A stretch of DNA of 62,989 nt from an uncultured Patescibacteria group bacterium. Its GTDB lineage: Bacteria; Patescibacteriota; JACMRA01. Position numbers and translations under genes: made by a program. The notes beneath the pieces are model-generated. The model saw nothing but the letters and a program-made list of their open reading frames with translations, made no database searches and was not told the origin of the DNA. This document shows positions 2,601-14,652 of the stretch, one piece after another (position 1 is the stretch's first letter; each line of letters starts with the position of its first letter). The stretch covers positions 1 to 62,989 of the forward strand of contig CALIJC010000009.1 of NCBI GenBank assembly GCA_938017575.1. Direction: 5' to 3'.

Positions 2601-3512
2601 ATGCCTCAAACAACATTAATTACTTTGTTAGGTCAAACTAGCAGCGGCAAATCTGAAATGGCAGTTAGCCTAGCCAAAAAACTTGGCGAAGCTTGGGTGG
2701 TTAATTGTGATTCCCGTCAAATCTACAGGGGGCTAAATATTGGTACCGGTAAGGTAGAAGGTAAGTGGGTCTATGGTAAATATATTTATAAAGGTATCCA
2801 GCACCATTTGATTGATTTTGTTGACCCAAAAAAACGCTATTCATTAAAAAACTTTTTATTAGATTTTAACAAGGTTTGTTCTACCCCTAATATTCCAAAA
2901 TATATAATTTTAACAGGAGGTACTGGCATGTACGCAGATAGTATTATTAATAAATATGAATTAGCCAATCTAAGCGAGTCGCAGGAAAAACAGTTTCAAA
3001 AAACCAAAAAAGAATTGGAACAATTAGATCTAGAAACTCTCCAAAATAAATATAATTCATTAAAAAATATAAGGCCCAATTCTGGCAGTCTTAATAACTC
3101 AGATTTTCATAATTTGCGTAGACTGGTAAATTGGTTAATGAGACAGCAAGATGATTTCTGCAATGCGGATATAATCTCAATACCAGAGTTTAGGAAAACA
3201 TATAATTTTGCTATTAAAATTGACCAAGATATATTAAAGAAAAAAATCACCAGCAGGCTAGAAGAAAGGTTTTCCCAAGGGCTGATGGATGAAGTAAATC
3301 AATTAGATTTAAGTAGTGATAGGCTAAATGAATTAGGGCTGGAGTATAAAATAGTTAGCCAGTATCTGTCTGGTGACATAGATAAAGATGGCATTATTCC
3401 AAAATTAAAAACAGCTAATATTTCTTTGGCAAAAAAACAAAAAACCTGGCTCAAAAAAAGAGATTTAATTTGGGTTAAATCAGAAGATGAAATTATGGAT
3501 TATATTAAATAA
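2601..3512 (+). CDS. miaA: tRNA dimethylallyltransferase
   Basis: P-loop GQTSSGKS, DSRQIYRGLNIGTGK motif, 303 aa, SD aaggggg upstream. Confidence 0.9.
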   Translation: MPQTTLITLLGQTSSGKSEMAVSLAKKLGEAWVVNCDSRQIYRGLNIGTGKVEGKWVYGKYIYKGIQHHLIDFVDPKKRYSLKNFLLDFNKVCSTPNIPKYIILTGGTGMYADSIINKYELANLSESQEKQFQKTKKELEQLDLETLQNKYNSLKNIRPNSGSLNNSDFHNLRRLVNWLMRQQDDFCNADIISIPEFRKTYNFAIKIDQDILKKKITSRLEERFSQGLMDEVNQLDLSSDRLNELGLEYKIVSQYLSGDIDKDGIIPKLKTANISLAKKQKTWLKKRDLIWVKSEDEIMDYIK

Positions 3513-3518
3513 GTGCTT

Positions 3519-3660
3519 TGAGAAGATATTAAATAGGCTAACTTACAAATTAAATACTATTTATTAGAACACTTCTACTATAGAAATAGGGATAGGTGAC
3601 AGCAACAATAATATGCCCTCTCCCAAAAATAGTCATGGGCAGAGGGCAGTCTGAGAACAG
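3519..3660. repeat. Fragment of the dispersed intergenic repeat family, ending in two abutting inverted type-1 termini
   Basis: The module agatattaaatagg...aaatact resembles 44885-44930 and 48735-48800. The segments gccctctccc (3615-3624) and gggcagagggc (3637-3647) form a palindrome made of the GCCCTCTGCCC terminus seen at 45697, 61260 and (reverse complement) 48891. Confidence 0.6.
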
Positions 3661-3687
3661 ACATAGTTATACATACTTGCCAATTGG

Positions 3688-4800: not shown

Positions 4801-4868
4801 AAAAACACATAAAATTAATGCTACCTTTATTCAAAGTAGCATATAGGAAAGGGCGGAAGAAGCTAAAT

Positions 4869-5237
4869 TTAGTCAGCTCTTCTGTATTCCTTCCCTTGGA
4901 TAATAATAACATCGGGCGGGGAATCAATATCCCCTTTTGGAAAAAAACGCTCGACAGTTTCTTCCCTTCTTGGCAAAATCCGAATTGTTTTGTTGGAATT
5001 CCGCCCTTCAAAGACGAAGGGGCAGCCTTTGCCGCCATCGGCGCAGTGCCGACCAGCGTTGTCAAATTTTGGCTTTCTCGTTCGCCCTGAATTGCCAAAA
5101 GAAGGCTTCTGCACTCGGCCTGAGTTTCCGAACCCAGAGAAGGGCTTCCCTTTCTGGTTATGCCCAGCAAGTGCTGGAGAAGATACAGAAAAAAGAGCCA
5201 AAAAAACAATAGGTAGAAAAATTTTTACGTTTTTCAT
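4869..5237 (-). CDS. Small secreted basic protein with internal (K)P(S)FG(F)GNSGR repeats (hypothetical)
   Basis: Signal peptide MKNVKIFLPIVFLALFSVSSPALA. Repeats KPFSGFGNSGRV / KPSFGNSGRT / KPKFDNAGR. Chosen over the overlapping ORFs because it has the signal peptide and a matching promoter. Confidence 0.6.
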   Translation of the reverse strand: MKNVKIFLPIVFLALFSVSSPALAGHNQKGKPFSGFGNSGRVQKPSFGNSGRTRKPKFDNAGRHCADGGKGCPFVFEGRNSNKTIRILPRREETVERFFPKGDIDSPPDVIIIQGKEYRRAD

Positions 5238-5275
5238 TATACAATCCCCAATTAAAAATTACGTTTACCTCTTAT

Positions 5276-5304
5276 ATAATAGCCTAAAAAGAGGCTTTTG
5301 TCAA
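5276..5304 (-). promoter_or_regulatory. Promoter TTGACA-N17-TATTAT
   Basis: The reverse complement reads cTTGACAaaagcct...TATTAT. It shares the extended context AGGCTTTTGTCAAG with the promoter at 45384-45412. Confidence 0.6.
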
Positions 5305-5315
5305 GCCCAAAAGAC

Positions 5316-5340
5316 AACAAAAAACCACCCCGAAGGGTGG
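5316..5340 (-). terminator. Rho-independent terminator of the pilin-like gene
   Basis: ccaccc cgaa gggtgg hairpin. On the minus strand it is followed by tttttttgttg. Confidence 0.7.
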
Positions 5341-5362
5341 TTAAATTCTGGTAAAACTAATT

Positions 5363-5797
5363 CTAATTATTACCTCCACCAATATCGACAACACCAGTAG
5401 ATCCTACCAGTCCTCCGATAAGGCTGACGATTGTATAGGCTACGATTGCTAATACTAATCCAATCAAAGCGTTTTTAACAATAGTTTGACCTTTTTTAGC
5501 ATTATCATCATTACCACCTGGGTTAACTACGAATAGGAAACCTCCATATACCAAGAATAACACAGCTAGTGCACCAACGATAAAGGTTACAAAGCTAGCT
5601 ATTCCCAAAATGAAATCAGCAATTGTTCCCTGATCTGCATCTGACAAATCTGAGTCTCCAGTTACTGGACATCCAGTGCTAGGACAAACTTGTGGGATTC
5701 CTTGAGCTGTAGCTCCAACATTACCAAGAGCTGTTACAGCAACGAACATAAATACACCTAAAGCGGCGCCTAAAATAATTTTCTTTAAAGTTGACAT
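5363..5797 (-). CDS. TrbC/VirB2-like 'T4SS pilin' family protein (single domain)
   Basis: Signal/TM segment, then two TM helices flanking YGGFLFVVNPGGNDDNAKKGQTIVKNALIGLVLAIVAY. This is the pattern typical of CPR T4SS_pilin-type proteins. Confidence 0.7.
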   Translation of the reverse strand: MSTLKKIILGAALGVFMFVAVTALGNVGATAQGIPQVCPSTGCPVTGDSDLSDADQGTIADFILGIASFVTFIVGALAVLFLVYGGFLFVVNPGGNDDNAKKGQTIVKNALIGLVLAIVAYTIVSLIGGLVGSTGVVDIGGGNN

Positions 5798-11598: not shown

Positions 11599-11693
11599 AT
11601 TTATGTTATGAGTAAAATATTATTATATTGTCAATTGACCGAAGTTATGCTATATTTATCGAGTTCGTTGTGAATTTCGTTGGAGAAGAAAAC

Positions 11694-11942
11694 GTGAAGA
11701 AGCAATCTATTATTTTATTTTTGCCATTACTTCTAATAACAGCCTTATTTTCTAGCTGTTCAAGTGAGCAGCAGGTGAACCCGCTGAACATAAACAAAGC
11801 AGGGGTGAATTCTGAAGAGCTAAAAAAAGAGAAAGGGACATCCAACTGTCAGTATACCAAGAGACAACTAGATGAAGTTAAAAAATCTGGATATACTAGT
11901 GAATTGAGACAGGCTGAGAAGCTAGTCGAAGAGTCTTGCTAA
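11694..11942 (+). CDS. Small lipoprotein (hypothetical)
   Basis: GTG at 11694 preceded by ggaga. Lipobox LFSSC within KKQSIILFLPLLLITALFSSCSS. The track ORF begins earlier, at 11628. Confidence 0.5.
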   Translation: MKKQSIILFLPLLLITALFSSCSSEQQVNPLNINKAGVNSEELKKEKGTSNCQYTKRQLDEVKKSGYTSELRQAEKLVEESC

Positions 11943-11982
11943 AGTAGCCAAATTCATCAAGTAGATTCATGCGCAGAGTTTA

Positions 11983-12897
11983 TTAACTTTGCGCTTTATG
12001 TTTTTCTATTACTTCTATGATTGGCGTAAATAAATCTGTCTGATAAAGAGTTTCTTTTTGGTTCAAAACAGTCAAAAGCCTTTCATATCCAGCACCCGTA
12101 TCAATGTTTCTCACAGACAAATCAGATAAGTTTTTTGGTTCGCTGTTTTCATCTTTTTCACCCTCATATTGCATGAAAACATTATTCCAGATTTCTACAA
12201 TTTGATTTTCCAAGAAATCCTCAATTTGTTCACCGGACAAATTTCCCAACACCGACTGCTCAAAATCTAATGGGTTTTCATCCATCAAATAATACACTTC
12301 TGAGCATGGCCCACACGGTCCTTTATAAGGGAGACCCCACCAATTATCATTTCCACTTTTTTGAGTTATTCTATAAATATATTTTTGATCTGGTTTGTTG
12401 TTTTCTGGGTTTTTAAAGTCATATTCGACACCTGTTGTTGGCTCCACACCAGATTTATCAAATAAATCCTGCCAAACTTTTATGGCTTCATGATCAGCCT
12501 TAACATCGCCGCAGCCTCTGTAAACTGTAACAAATAATCTACGAGGATCTAATCCTAAATAGTCCGGGCTAGTCAAAAATTCATACGTATATTTGATTGA
12601 ATCTTCTTTGAAATAATCACCTAGTGACCAAACACCCATCATCTCAAAAAAGGTTAGGTGTCGATTGTCGCCAACTTCTTCTATATCTCCAGTTCTAATA
12701 CATTTTTGTAAATTTGCTAAACGATTTCCTGCTGGATGAGTCTGGCCAAGTAAATATGGAATTAGTGGCTGCATTCCAGCAGTTGTAAACAAAACAGTCG
12801 GATCTTCTTTTGGCACTAAAGAGCTTGAAGGAAGTATCGAGTGGTTTTTTGATTCATAAAATTTGATAAATTTCTCTCTGAGTTCTTTGGAGTTCAT
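11983..12897 (-). CDS. Stand-alone alanyl-tRNA synthetase catalytic-core protein (truncated AlaRS homologue)
   Basis: Class II AlaRS N-terminal signature: FIKFYESKNHSILPSSSLVP..DPTVLFTTAGMQ, RHLTFFEMMGVWS and motif-3 region DTGAGYERL. The ORF stops about 40 aa after that. The tRNA-recognition, editing and C-Ala domains are absent. Confidence 0.85.
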   Translation of the reverse strand: MNSKELREKFIKFYESKNHSILPSSSLVPKEDPTVLFTTAGMQPLIPYLLGQTHPAGNRLANLQKCIRTGDIEEVGDNRHLTFFEMMGVWSLGDYFKEDSIKYTYEFLTSPDYLGLDPRRLFVTVYRGCGDVKADHEAIKVWQDLFDKSGVEPTTGVEYDFKNPENNKPDQKYIYRITQKSGNDNWWGLPYKGPCGPCSEVYYLMDENPLDFEQSVLGNLSGEQIEDFLENQIVEIWNNVFMQYEGEKDENSEPKNLSDLSVRNIDTGAGYERLLTVLNQKETLYQTDLFTPIIEVIEKHKAQS

Positions 12898-12899
12898 AA

Positions 12900-13307
12900 T
12901 TATTTAAATAGTTTAGAATGAATATAGATTATTGCACTAGTTATTATTATCCCGAGCGTGGAACTAACCAAGGCGTCTGTTAGTTGAGCCTCTGATTGGA
13001 TTAAACTTTTCTCTTCTTGTTTGTCTTCGCATTCATCTATCTCTTCTTGGGATAGCTTGTCTTCAATAGGACCAAAATCCTGCCTGCCATTGATAATTTT
13101 TGAAGGGTTCTCATCCCAGCCACCAGCTTTTTCTACAATACATTGTTCATAAACAAAAGTCTCTCTACCTGGTTTAAGATCTGTAAAAACAAAGTTAACT
13201 AAAATTGATATTAACAAAGTGTAGATAGAAATCCCCAAGATTAAAATACTCACACCAGTTACAAAATAATAATAGAATTGTTTTGCCCAATGTGAATTTG
13301 ATTTCAT
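12900..13307 (-). CDS. Two-TM membrane protein, paralogue of the 13313..13651 gene
   Basis: N-terminal NSHWAKQFYYYFVTGVSILILGISIYTLL compares with NSHWVKILYYYLVIAGCLLFFSIGLYWLS in its neighbour. C-terminal TM helix. Confidence 0.5.
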   Translation of the reverse strand: MKSNSHWAKQFYYYFVTGVSILILGISIYTLLISILVNFVFTDLKPGRETFVYEQCIVEKAGGWDENPSKIINGRQDFGPIEDKLSQEEIDECEDKQEEKSLIQSEAQLTDALVSSTLGIIITSAIIYIHSKLFK

Positions 13308-13312
13308 AGTTA

Positions 13313-13651
13313 TTAATCTTTAATTTTTATAATTTTGGTGTGTAAGAAATATATTGCAACTGAGACCACCATCATCAGTGTCGAATTAAGAATATCTTCT
13401 TGGTATCTGATACTAATCTCCTTTGATCTGCGAGATTCGTCAACATATGAAAACGTGTTTTCGTTAACAACAGGAAAGAAAGTATTGATAATTACAGCCC
13501 TACTAAGCCAGTATAAGCCAATCGAAAAGAACAAAAGACATCCTGCAATCACTAAATAATAATATAATATCTTTACCCAATGGGAATTATTCTGACTTTC
13601 TTTGACTGGTTTATTAATCTTTTTTGGAGATTTTTTTTTATTTTCAGACAT
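13313..13651 (-). CDS. Two-TM membrane protein, paralogue of the 12900..13307 gene
   Basis: Same architecture and shared N-terminal motif. Tandem arrangement with a 5-nt gap. Confidence 0.5.
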   Translation of the reverse strand: MSENKKKSPKKINKPVKESQNNSHWVKILYYYLVIAGCLLFFSIGLYWLSRAVIINTFFPVVNENTFSYVDESRRSKEISIRYQEDILNSTLMMVVSVAIYFLHTKIIKIKD

Positions 13652-13671: not shown

Positions 13672-14652
13672 TTATAAGATCTCAATTTTTTGGATTTTTA
13701 TTTCCTGATTTGGTCTACCATCTTTTGTATCAGCTTCACTATCATCAACAGGATCAACCTCATCGGTGATTTTATCAAGCACGGCAAAATCTTCGCTGTC
13801 AACAATTCCAAAAACAGTATACTGTGCAGGCAAGGTTGTGTCATTCAAAGTTACAAAGAATTGACTACCAGCAGAGTCAGGAGCTGATGTTTTAGCCATA
13901 ATCAATAATCCTTTTCGGTATTTTACAGTTCCAGTGGTTTTGTCGAAATCTTCATATAGACTAGTGTCACTAAACACAGGGTCGTTTGTAATTGCTAATG
14001 AACCTTCAGATTGATTTGTTTCTGGCTCAACTTCCCAAAGTTCATCTGGAATTGGTGTACCAAATGCACTTGCCCCTCCTGTTCCAGTTCCGTCTGGGTC
14101 TCCACCCTGAATAACGCTAAATGTAGGACCTTCAACCATTCTATGGAAAATCTGGTTGTTATAATATTCTCGATAAGTTAACCTCAGAAAACTCTCTGTT
14201 GTTTTTGGTGCGGCCTGATCTTGGAGGGCAACTTTTATTTCACCATAATTAGTTTCAATAGCTACGTTTTGGTCTTGGAAATTCAAAACCTCATCTTCGG
14301 CAGCTAATTGGTCTTCGTTGGTTTGGTTATCTTCTTGGGCTTGGGCAGTTTGGTTGTCGTCATTAAATTCTTCCTCTCCAGTAATCTTTGGAATATATGT
14401 GTTATTTAACCAAACAAATCCTGCAATTATAGCCACACTAACAATAACTTTGAAAATCTTTGACAAGGCTTTTGTAAAATCCAGATCCTTTTGTTTTTTC
14501 TCAGTTGATGGGTTGTTTATGACTGTTTCTTTGATTTCAGTAGGGTTTTTTTCTACCTTGGTTTTTGTCTCAGCAATTTCTTTTTTGCTTGCTTTAGAAA
14601 CTGTTTTTTTGATAACCTTTTTCTTCTTTTTAGAGGTAACTTTTTTAGCCAT
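13672..14652 (-). CDS. Cyclophilin-type peptidyl-prolyl isomerase with Lys-rich N-terminus and TM anchor
   Basis: FHRMV..VIQGGDPDGTGTGG and GLLIMAKTS..SAGSQFFVT motifs. The N-terminal 60 aa are K-rich and are followed by a TM helix. Confidence 0.85.
   Translation of the reverse strand: MAKKVTSKKKKKVIKKTVSKASKKEIAETKTKVEKNPTEIKETVINNPSTEKKQKDLDFTKALSKIFKVIVSVAIIAGFVWLNNTYIPKITGEEEFNDDNQTAQAQEDNQTNEDQLAAEDEVLNFQDQNVAIETNYGEIKVALQDQAAPKTTESFLRLTYREYYNNQIFHRMVEGPTFSVIQGGDPDGTGTGGASAFGTPIPDELWEVEPETNQSEGSLAITNDPVFSDTSLYEDFDKTTGTVKYRKGLLIMAKTSAPDSAGSQFFVTLNDTTLPAQYTVFGIVDSEDFAVLDKITDEVDPVDDSEADTKDGRPNQEIKIQKIEIL

Follow-up and report, generated by a model that had tools for sequence, protein, structure and literature searches.

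Alanyl-tRNA synthetase (AlaRS) has been described as the one synthetase to retain its prototype architecture in all of biology, the split enzyme of Nanoarchaeum equitans being the named exception (PMC10036535, 2023). In Nanoarchaeota, the enzyme is encoded by two unlinked genes that lie about half a chromosome apart in a tiny, symbiont-like genome without a full-length copy, with the catalytic core on the alpha subunit and the editing domain on the beta subunit (PMC11392972). The N. equitans alpha and beta subunits are fully active and specific for the G3:U70 base pair of tRNA-Ala only when they are together (PMC11392972). Our literature search, whose coverage was not exhaustive, found no report of a bacterial split alaS, and the nanoarchaeal enzymes were the only split AlaRS proteins reported.

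Other described enzymes approach parts of the system analyzed here. The short-form AlaRS proteins without a C-Ala domain (NF002436 / PRK01584 type, ~590-650 aa) of Patescibacteria, Treponema, and some archaea are single polypeptides. Tupanvirus mini-AlaRS and the E. coli fragments 368N and 461N lack downstream domains but keep part or all of the tRNA-recognition domain with the core (PMC10036535, PMC11392972). The bacterial heterotetrameric glycyl-tRNA synthetase (GlyRS; GlyQ of ~300 aa plus GlyS) combines a near-bare class II core of AlaRS-like fold with tRNA handling on a separate chain.

We analyzed a window of 62,989 nucleotides, the whole stretch of DNA under study, from an uncultured Patescibacteria group bacterium. 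An ORF at 11983..12897 on the minus strand encodes 304 aa, made up of the class II catalytic core of AlaRS and one additional helix, and represents the first piece of alaS (hereafter alpha). The initial annotation, made from the letters alone, had described a stand-alone AlaRS catalytic core with class II motifs, and both points were borne out. Class II motifs 1-3 are present, and the Pfam AlaRS family PF01411 (tRNA-synt_2c) matched the ORF with an E value of 6.3e-71 (240 bits; cut-off, 30.3) over profile positions 1-258 of 552 only. Because the ORF is only part of a protein, it scored below the full-length cut-offs of the NCBIfam AlaRS equivalogs TIGR00344 (252.8 bits; cut-off, 457) and NF002436 (293.4 bits; cut-off, 529), the latter, a ~595-aa short form, being its best NCBIfam match. 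Judged as a full-length alanine--tRNA ligase, with an equivalog-level score and three domains in one chain, the ORF falls short. The motif 3 region, IDTGAGYERL, occupies residues 265-274 and is followed by 30 residues, close to the approximately 40 first estimated. The ORF starts with ATG and stops with TAA, and another TAA three codons before the ATG is the stop of the upstream gene. With TAA at each end, neither boundary depends on how TGA is read.

Alpha aligned with E. coli AlaRS residues 4-268. AlphaFold2, with 64 homologues in the input, modeled the protein with a mean pLDDT of 88.9 and a pTM of 0.89, and a Foldseek search with this model returned AlaRS catalytic-fragment entries as the top 19 PDB matches (TM 0.69-0.74; E about 1e-22 to 1e-25), from human, E. 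coli, A. aeolicus, and other AlaRS proteins. Alpha is confidently predicted to adopt the AlaRS catalytic fold. The model also contains a clade-specific structured insertion at residues ~146-176, predicted with high confidence, and ends in a helix (residues 288-301) that aligns to E. coli residues ~258-271. From published domain limits and from the alignment, we take this to be the first helix past the catalytic core. A match to the GlyRS alpha subunit (3rgl, ~290 aa) was more remote than those to AlaRS (TMt 0.51, with about half of both proteins covered). Membership in the GlyQ family was rejected, as Pfam reported the AlaRS family only and the alanine-specific residues are conserved. The likeness to GlyRS is thus an analogy of subunit design only, with GlyRS beta being unrelated in architecture to the second AlaRS piece described below.

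The initial annotation had proposed a search of the genome for a full-length alaS or for a separate gene encoding the missing domains. We searched the 78 contigs of the source assembly (1.04 Mb, 78% complete) with the PF01411 profile and obtained three matches. Besides alpha, which covered positions 1-259 in this search, an ORF of 329 aa outside the window, on contig C76 (1092-2081, plus strand), matched positions 269-453, the tRNA-recognition part of the profile, and carries a tRNA_SAD domain that represents the editing core. In this protein, hereafter beta, alignments identified a region equivalent to residues 281-439 of the E. coli enzyme and a region matching the A. fulgidus AlaRS editing core. 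The third match (positions 472-551) was an AlaX-like tail inside a long lysyl-tRNA synthetase frame on contig C41. No full-length alaS was found in this 78% complete assembly. Beta lies between a convergent BacA/UppP gene and a 332-aa ORF, which has no Pfam match and whose hydrophobic ends suggest a membrane anchor. Since beta is flanked by the same neighbors in a relative of the same genus (G001), contig C76 is not a binning contaminant. These findings agree with the suggestion in the initial annotation that the ORF could be one half of a split alaS as known for Nanoarchaeum: the missing domains are encoded by a separate gene, and, as described below, the split is conserved across the class.

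The AlaX-like tail belongs to a fusion of ~1030 aa (C41:3526-6675, plus strand) composed of a class II LysRS (OB fold and tRNA-synt_2), DUF2000, and an AlaX-like editing domain that carries HxxxH and CxxxH. The same fusion occurs within the genus as a 1004-aa frame. In G008, G013, G022, and G023, the AlaX part forms a protein of its own (~235-250 aa), and in G009 and G024 it lies within frames of ~810-824 aa. We also observed weak, distant AlaRS catalytic-core matches in G001 (C44:15073-15522, a 351-aa frame) and G012 (C4:86280-86477, a 373-aa frame), with 30-35% identity over 70-150 residues, which may be AlaRS-core-like paralogues. No paralogue of this type was found in the genome from which the window comes.

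We mapped the break by aligning eight concatenated alpha-beta pairs with 12 unsplit short-form AlaRS proteins and E. coli AlaS. The C terminus of alpha, ..KHKAQS, falls at E. coli position 272-274, and beta starts at ~281 with the N terminus MTKNYEYIIADH.., so that the two pieces abut, with short tails, without loss or addition of homologous sequence. The break fell at the identical alignment column in all eight split genomes. In the 12 unsplit relatives, the site is a loop of ~10-40 residues with lineage-specific inserts, and this variation in length and inserts among unsplit proteins indicates a loop that tolerates change. No added dimerization element was found in alpha or beta.

The position of the break sets this enzyme apart from that of N. 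equitans. The nanoarchaeal chain is broken at E. coli ~368 (PMC11392972), about 90-100 residues later than the ~272-281 mapped here, and because of this earlier break, alpha contains almost none of the tRNA-recognition domain. All of that domain but one helix is located elsewhere, in contrast to mini-AlaRS, 368N, and 461N. The two systems share two unlinked genes without a full-length copy (here on the contig of the window and on C76, and also in the single-contig genome G018), a catalytic core on alpha with the editing domain on beta, and a small host genome, and they differ in break point and descent. The split described here is bacterial and arises within a clade of bacterial-type short-form AlaRS proteins, and beta, unlike its nanoarchaeal counterpart, has no C-Ala domain.

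We next consider the functional residues, as a check of the active site in an alignment had also been proposed. The alanine/ATP-site residues R69, W170, N212, D235, and G237 of E. coli AlaRS correspond to R68, W187, N238, D266, and G268 of alpha. All five are intact and were invariant in an alignment of 25 split and 74 unsplit sequences, and likewise in 64 stand-alone alpha pieces, among which 61 columns were invariant, including every catalytic residue checked. The editing residues H564, H568, Q584, C666, and H670 were also invariant in the same 25 split and 74 unsplit sequences, with one split row gapped at the last two positions. This row probably belongs to G003, in which the third piece is cut off by the end of a contig.

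In E. coli AlaRS, the positions of Asn303 and Asp400 contact U70 and G3, respectively (PMC11392972, citing Naganuma et al. 2014), and the pair is read by these residues in A. fulgidus as well. The genome that encodes alpha and beta also encodes a tRNA-Ala(UGC) with G3:U70 and A73. In all 25 split enzymes, however, the Asn303 position is occupied by Gly, Pro, or Ala and the Asp400 position by Gln; in beta of the source genome (C76, L016), these positions are residues 28 and 129. Unsplit relatives have Asn, Arg, or Lys at the Asn303 position and D, E, Q, S, T, or A at the Asp400 position. Because both positions are replaced in the split enzymes, their tRNA recognition may differ from the textbook case.

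To place the split within the lineage, we relied on the 27 species genomes (2 families, 19 genera) of the GTDB class to which the source genome belongs. Alpha is present in 26 of the 27, with 57-73% identity and frames of ~300-350 aa except for one of 980 aa, and all 25 genomes that yielded extracted pieces also contain the beta part. Synonymous sites are saturated, as the closest alpha orthologue shows 72% protein identity, and counts of invariant sites were therefore used in place of dN/dS. All 16 genomes taken from 16 other families of the phylum contain an unsplit alaS of 580-650 aa. Public protein and metagenome collections hold more than 120 clusters of stand-alone alpha pieces of ~300 aa, which, if named at all, are called "alanyl-tRNA synthetase," "alanine--tRNA ligase-related protein," or "hypothetical protein," and the closest named MAGs are labeled Ca. 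Gracilibacteria, candidate division SR1, or Patescibacteria group.

The number of pieces varies within the class. Two alaS pieces occur in 15 of the 25 extracted genomes and three in the other 10, each from a different genus (G003, G006, G008, G009, G011, G013, G018, G019, G020, and G022). The second break lies in beta at E. coli ~383-392, in the loop before the LYQTHG subdomain, where one piece ends in ..EWAKILK and a stop codon and the next begins M..LTPQFLAQKTWDLYQTHG... This third piece is a further difference from Nanoarchaeota, and although the second break is near the Nanoarchaeum break, we do not claim that the two positions are equal. The two beta-derived pieces adjoin with a 44-nt spacer in G019 (L124:2630-2962 and 3007-3669), are separated by two unrelated genes in G022 (L125:2438-2974 and 4843-5508), and lie on different contigs in most other three-piece genomes. 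The G018 genome is a single contig of 1.27 Mb; it lacks a full alaS and encodes the enzyme solely as three pieces, two of which are separated from alpha by ~564 kb.

A phylogenetic placement against canonical AlaRS, also called for in the initial annotation, was obtained by a quick maximum-likelihood search with SH-aLRT as the only support measure. All 25 extracted split enzymes formed one clade (SH-aLRT 100) inside bacterial-type short-form AlaRS, on a stem of 1.07 substitutions per site. This nesting makes the fission an event independent of the Nanoarchaeum split, and the topology and stem fit a single fission in the ancestor and rapid evolution thereafter. Genomes with three pieces are dispersed over the quick tree, with at least three changes, but a single origin was not rejected by an AU test (p 0.08). 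The short-form proteins are the parent form: they share with the split enzyme the domain set and a four-residue deletion after the catalytic Arg, and they are 42-50% identical to alpha and 35-43% identical to beta. They differ in being single chains, and the split clade lacks an Asn303 equivalent and contains additional catalytic-core insertions.

Two members of the class show unusual alaS genes. G005 is the sole member with an unsplit alaS (630-647 aa), on a 3.5-kb contig (C27, L122); its product is 37-42% identical to the split pieces and forms a long branch with Paceibacteria/Saccharibacteria-type enzymes, representing either a horizontal replacement or a binning error. In G011, alpha is a 980-aa frame without stops (L121:2462-5401, plus strand) whose clade-specific loop, flanked by EYDFK and KYIYRIT, contains ~640 aa nested in frame that make up a guanylate kinase, a Ham1/ITPase-like domain, and an alpha/beta hydrolase. 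This protein has Gly in place of the Trp of EIWNN that is invariant elsewhere. The frame represents either a genuine insertion of several nested enzymes or a chimera created during assembly.

The initial annotation had pointed to the co-orientation of the ORF with two tandem membrane paralogues. These small proteins (135 and 112 aa; 12900..13651, minus strand; no Pfam match) are indeed co-oriented with alpha, with gaps of 2-5 nt, but the association is not conserved: homologues were absent beside the alpha piece in all 24 relatives checked, including one of the same genus. Further upstream lies a gene for a membrane-anchored cyclophilin-type PPIase (13672..14652, minus strand; PF00160, E 7.5e-32). 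A cyclophilin gene adjoins alpha on the same strand in G001, G007, G012, G016, G018, and G022, directly abutting it in G001 (same genus) and G018 and lying beside it in the four further genera. Because the membrane paralogues are absent from the relatives' loci, where the cyclophilin gene neighbors alpha, they represent a genome-specific insertion into a conserved PPIase-alpha pair. A conserved membrane-linked aminoacylation role was rejected on the same grounds.

Downstream of alpha, a convergent lipoprotein-like ORF of 104 aa (11628..11942, plus strand), with a signal peptide followed by Cys and no Pfam match, leaves the AlaRS frame without a continuation, as first noted. A 109-aa membrane ORF also gave no Pfam match. 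Between the convergent genes, a terminator-like 10-bp hairpin containing G+C (11971..11994, no strand assigned) overlaps the TAA of alpha and is followed by a T run on the plus strand in a consensus scan. Two terminator-like sites were found in the region against 1.8 expected by chance, which makes them weak evidence, and the promoter and terminator scans were otherwise at chance level.

Considering these observations together, we find it very probable that the ORF encodes the alpha subunit of a noncovalent, heteromeric alpha/beta AlaRS. The sequences themselves show how the genes are built, that the pieces complement each other and are conserved, and that no full-length copy accompanies them; physical association of the chains, and activity that depends on both, are what we infer by analogy with N. 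equitans. An ancestral short-form alaS of about 600 aa, comprising the catalytic core, tRNA-recognition domain, and editing core without C-Ala, would have broken once, in the variable surface loop past the first helix after the catalytic core, and the two halves would then have become unlinked genes. Alpha would bind alanine and ATP, make alanyl-adenylate, and transfer the alanine. The helical tRNA-recognition domain of beta would dock the acceptor stem of tRNA-Ala with its G3:U70 pair, and the HxxxH/CxxxH editing site of beta would clear Ser- or Gly-tRNA-Ala. Alpha and beta would reassemble noncovalently via the native interdomain interface, with the last helix of alpha (residues 288-301) possibly acting as a docking aid that hooks into the helical bundle of beta. 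In the three-piece genera, the roles of beta would be shared by a helical piece and a piece with the Asp400-equivalent subdomain and the editing core.

A different division of labor would have alpha work by itself, activating alanine for another acceptor or charging a tRNA or minihelix-like RNA without G3:U70, with the C76 protein acting as a separate trans-editing or tRNA-binding factor. N. equitans alpha by itself weakly alanylates independently of G3:U70 (PMC11392972), and such a role would suit a clade that lacks the N303 and D400 readers, has a stem branch of 1.07 substitutions per site and structured insertions of its own at residues ~146-176, and encodes alpha and beta in unlinked genes. 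We nevertheless consider it improbable: an AlaRS is indispensable and even the single-contig G018 genome offers no alternative, alpha and beta co-occur in all 25 extracted genomes, beta keeps a complete tRNA-recognition domain for which alpha is the only catalytic partner, and the membrane-protein neighbors behind a membrane-linked version of the idea are not conserved. The truncated paralogue serving another acceptor that the initial annotation had raised has no full-length alaS present of which it could be a paralogue. Covalent joining of the two products into a single-chain AlaRS by a split intein or RNA trans-splicing would have precedent, as unlinked protein halves are rejoined in this way in some systems, such as the split DnaE inteins of cyanobacteria. 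We think this very improbable for alpha and beta, since their ends are flush with homologous sequence and leave no room for intein halves. Furthermore, Pfam found AlaRS domains and no intein domains in either piece, Rfam detected no intron, ribozyme, or regulatory RNA around either gene at E <= 0.1, and each gene is an unremarkable ORF that has a start and a stop codon of its own.

The genome is small, reduced, and probably host-dependent, which might instead suggest that alpha is a decaying remnant of an alaS under loss, for example with its function supplied by the host. Degraded catalytic residues had been named as the sign of such a pseudogene, and the invariance of these residues speaks against it, as do 57-73% identity without internal stops across 19 genera, the 61 invariant columns, and the intact editing site of beta; decay therefore seems to us hardly likely. 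The least probable explanation, in our judgment, is an artifact in which a normal alaS only seems divided, owing to an interrupted assembly, a frameshift error in sequencing, or the wrong genetic code. The source genome is a fragmented MAG, and public relatives carry the labels Gracilibacteria or SR1; in both groups, TGA is known to be translated as Gly. Against this stand the TAA codons at both ORF boundaries, the location of alpha within a 63-kb contig between unrelated genes, the TGA codons that end several pieces at natural ends, and the recurrence of the break in 25 genomes that were assembled independently, including one that is a single contig. Frameshift, read-through, and an alternative code were rejected given the two TAA codons and a partner on another contig (~564 kb away in G018); no frameshift that restores a long AlaRS ORF was found.

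As to the code itself, several pieces in relatives end in TGA at expected natural ends, and no tRNA(UCA) was found in the source assembly (78% complete). TGA thus serves as a stop in this lineage. ARAGORN also called a tRNA-like gene at C72:15232-15306 whose anticodon loop has 8 nt (anticodon given as ttta, Lys or stop) and whose acceptor stem has 8 bp; this gene may be miscalled or may encode a tRNA of the suppressor-like or frameshift type. In addition to tRNA-Ile with anticodon GAT, genes with anticodons AAT and TAT, which are unusual in bacteria, were called at C4:31832-31903 and C73:4330-4406.

A bolder reading can also be formulated, which we regard as rather unlikely. The enzyme would be a modular one of two or three chains whose bare core charges acceptor-stem substrates alone, without reading G3:U70, in the manner of N. 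equitans alpha, and to which detachable beta (and gamma) chains add specificity and proofreading. Because both classical G3:U70 readers are replaced in the clade, the G:U pair would be read in a way that has not been described. If true, these bacteria would serve as a present-day example of how a synthetase could be put together, step by step, from modules that were once separate.

Our findings show a second, independent fission of AlaRS, in bacteria, that is fixed across a whole class and has led to an enzyme encoded by three genes in some genera. The bacterial break separates the catalytic core from the tRNA-recognition domain, a boundary that differs from the nanoarchaeal one and divides the domains more cleanly. 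For annotation, pipelines that demand a full-length equivalog score could report such genomes as lacking an AlaRS, because the pieces score below the full-length cut-off and are named "alanine--tRNA ligase-related protein" or "hypothetical protein." For the biology of the family, these enzymes may serve as natural material for studying how synthetase domains recognize each other in trans, what share of G3:U70 recognition resides outside the catalytic core, and how the G:U pair is read when the equivalents of Asn303 and Asp400 are absent.
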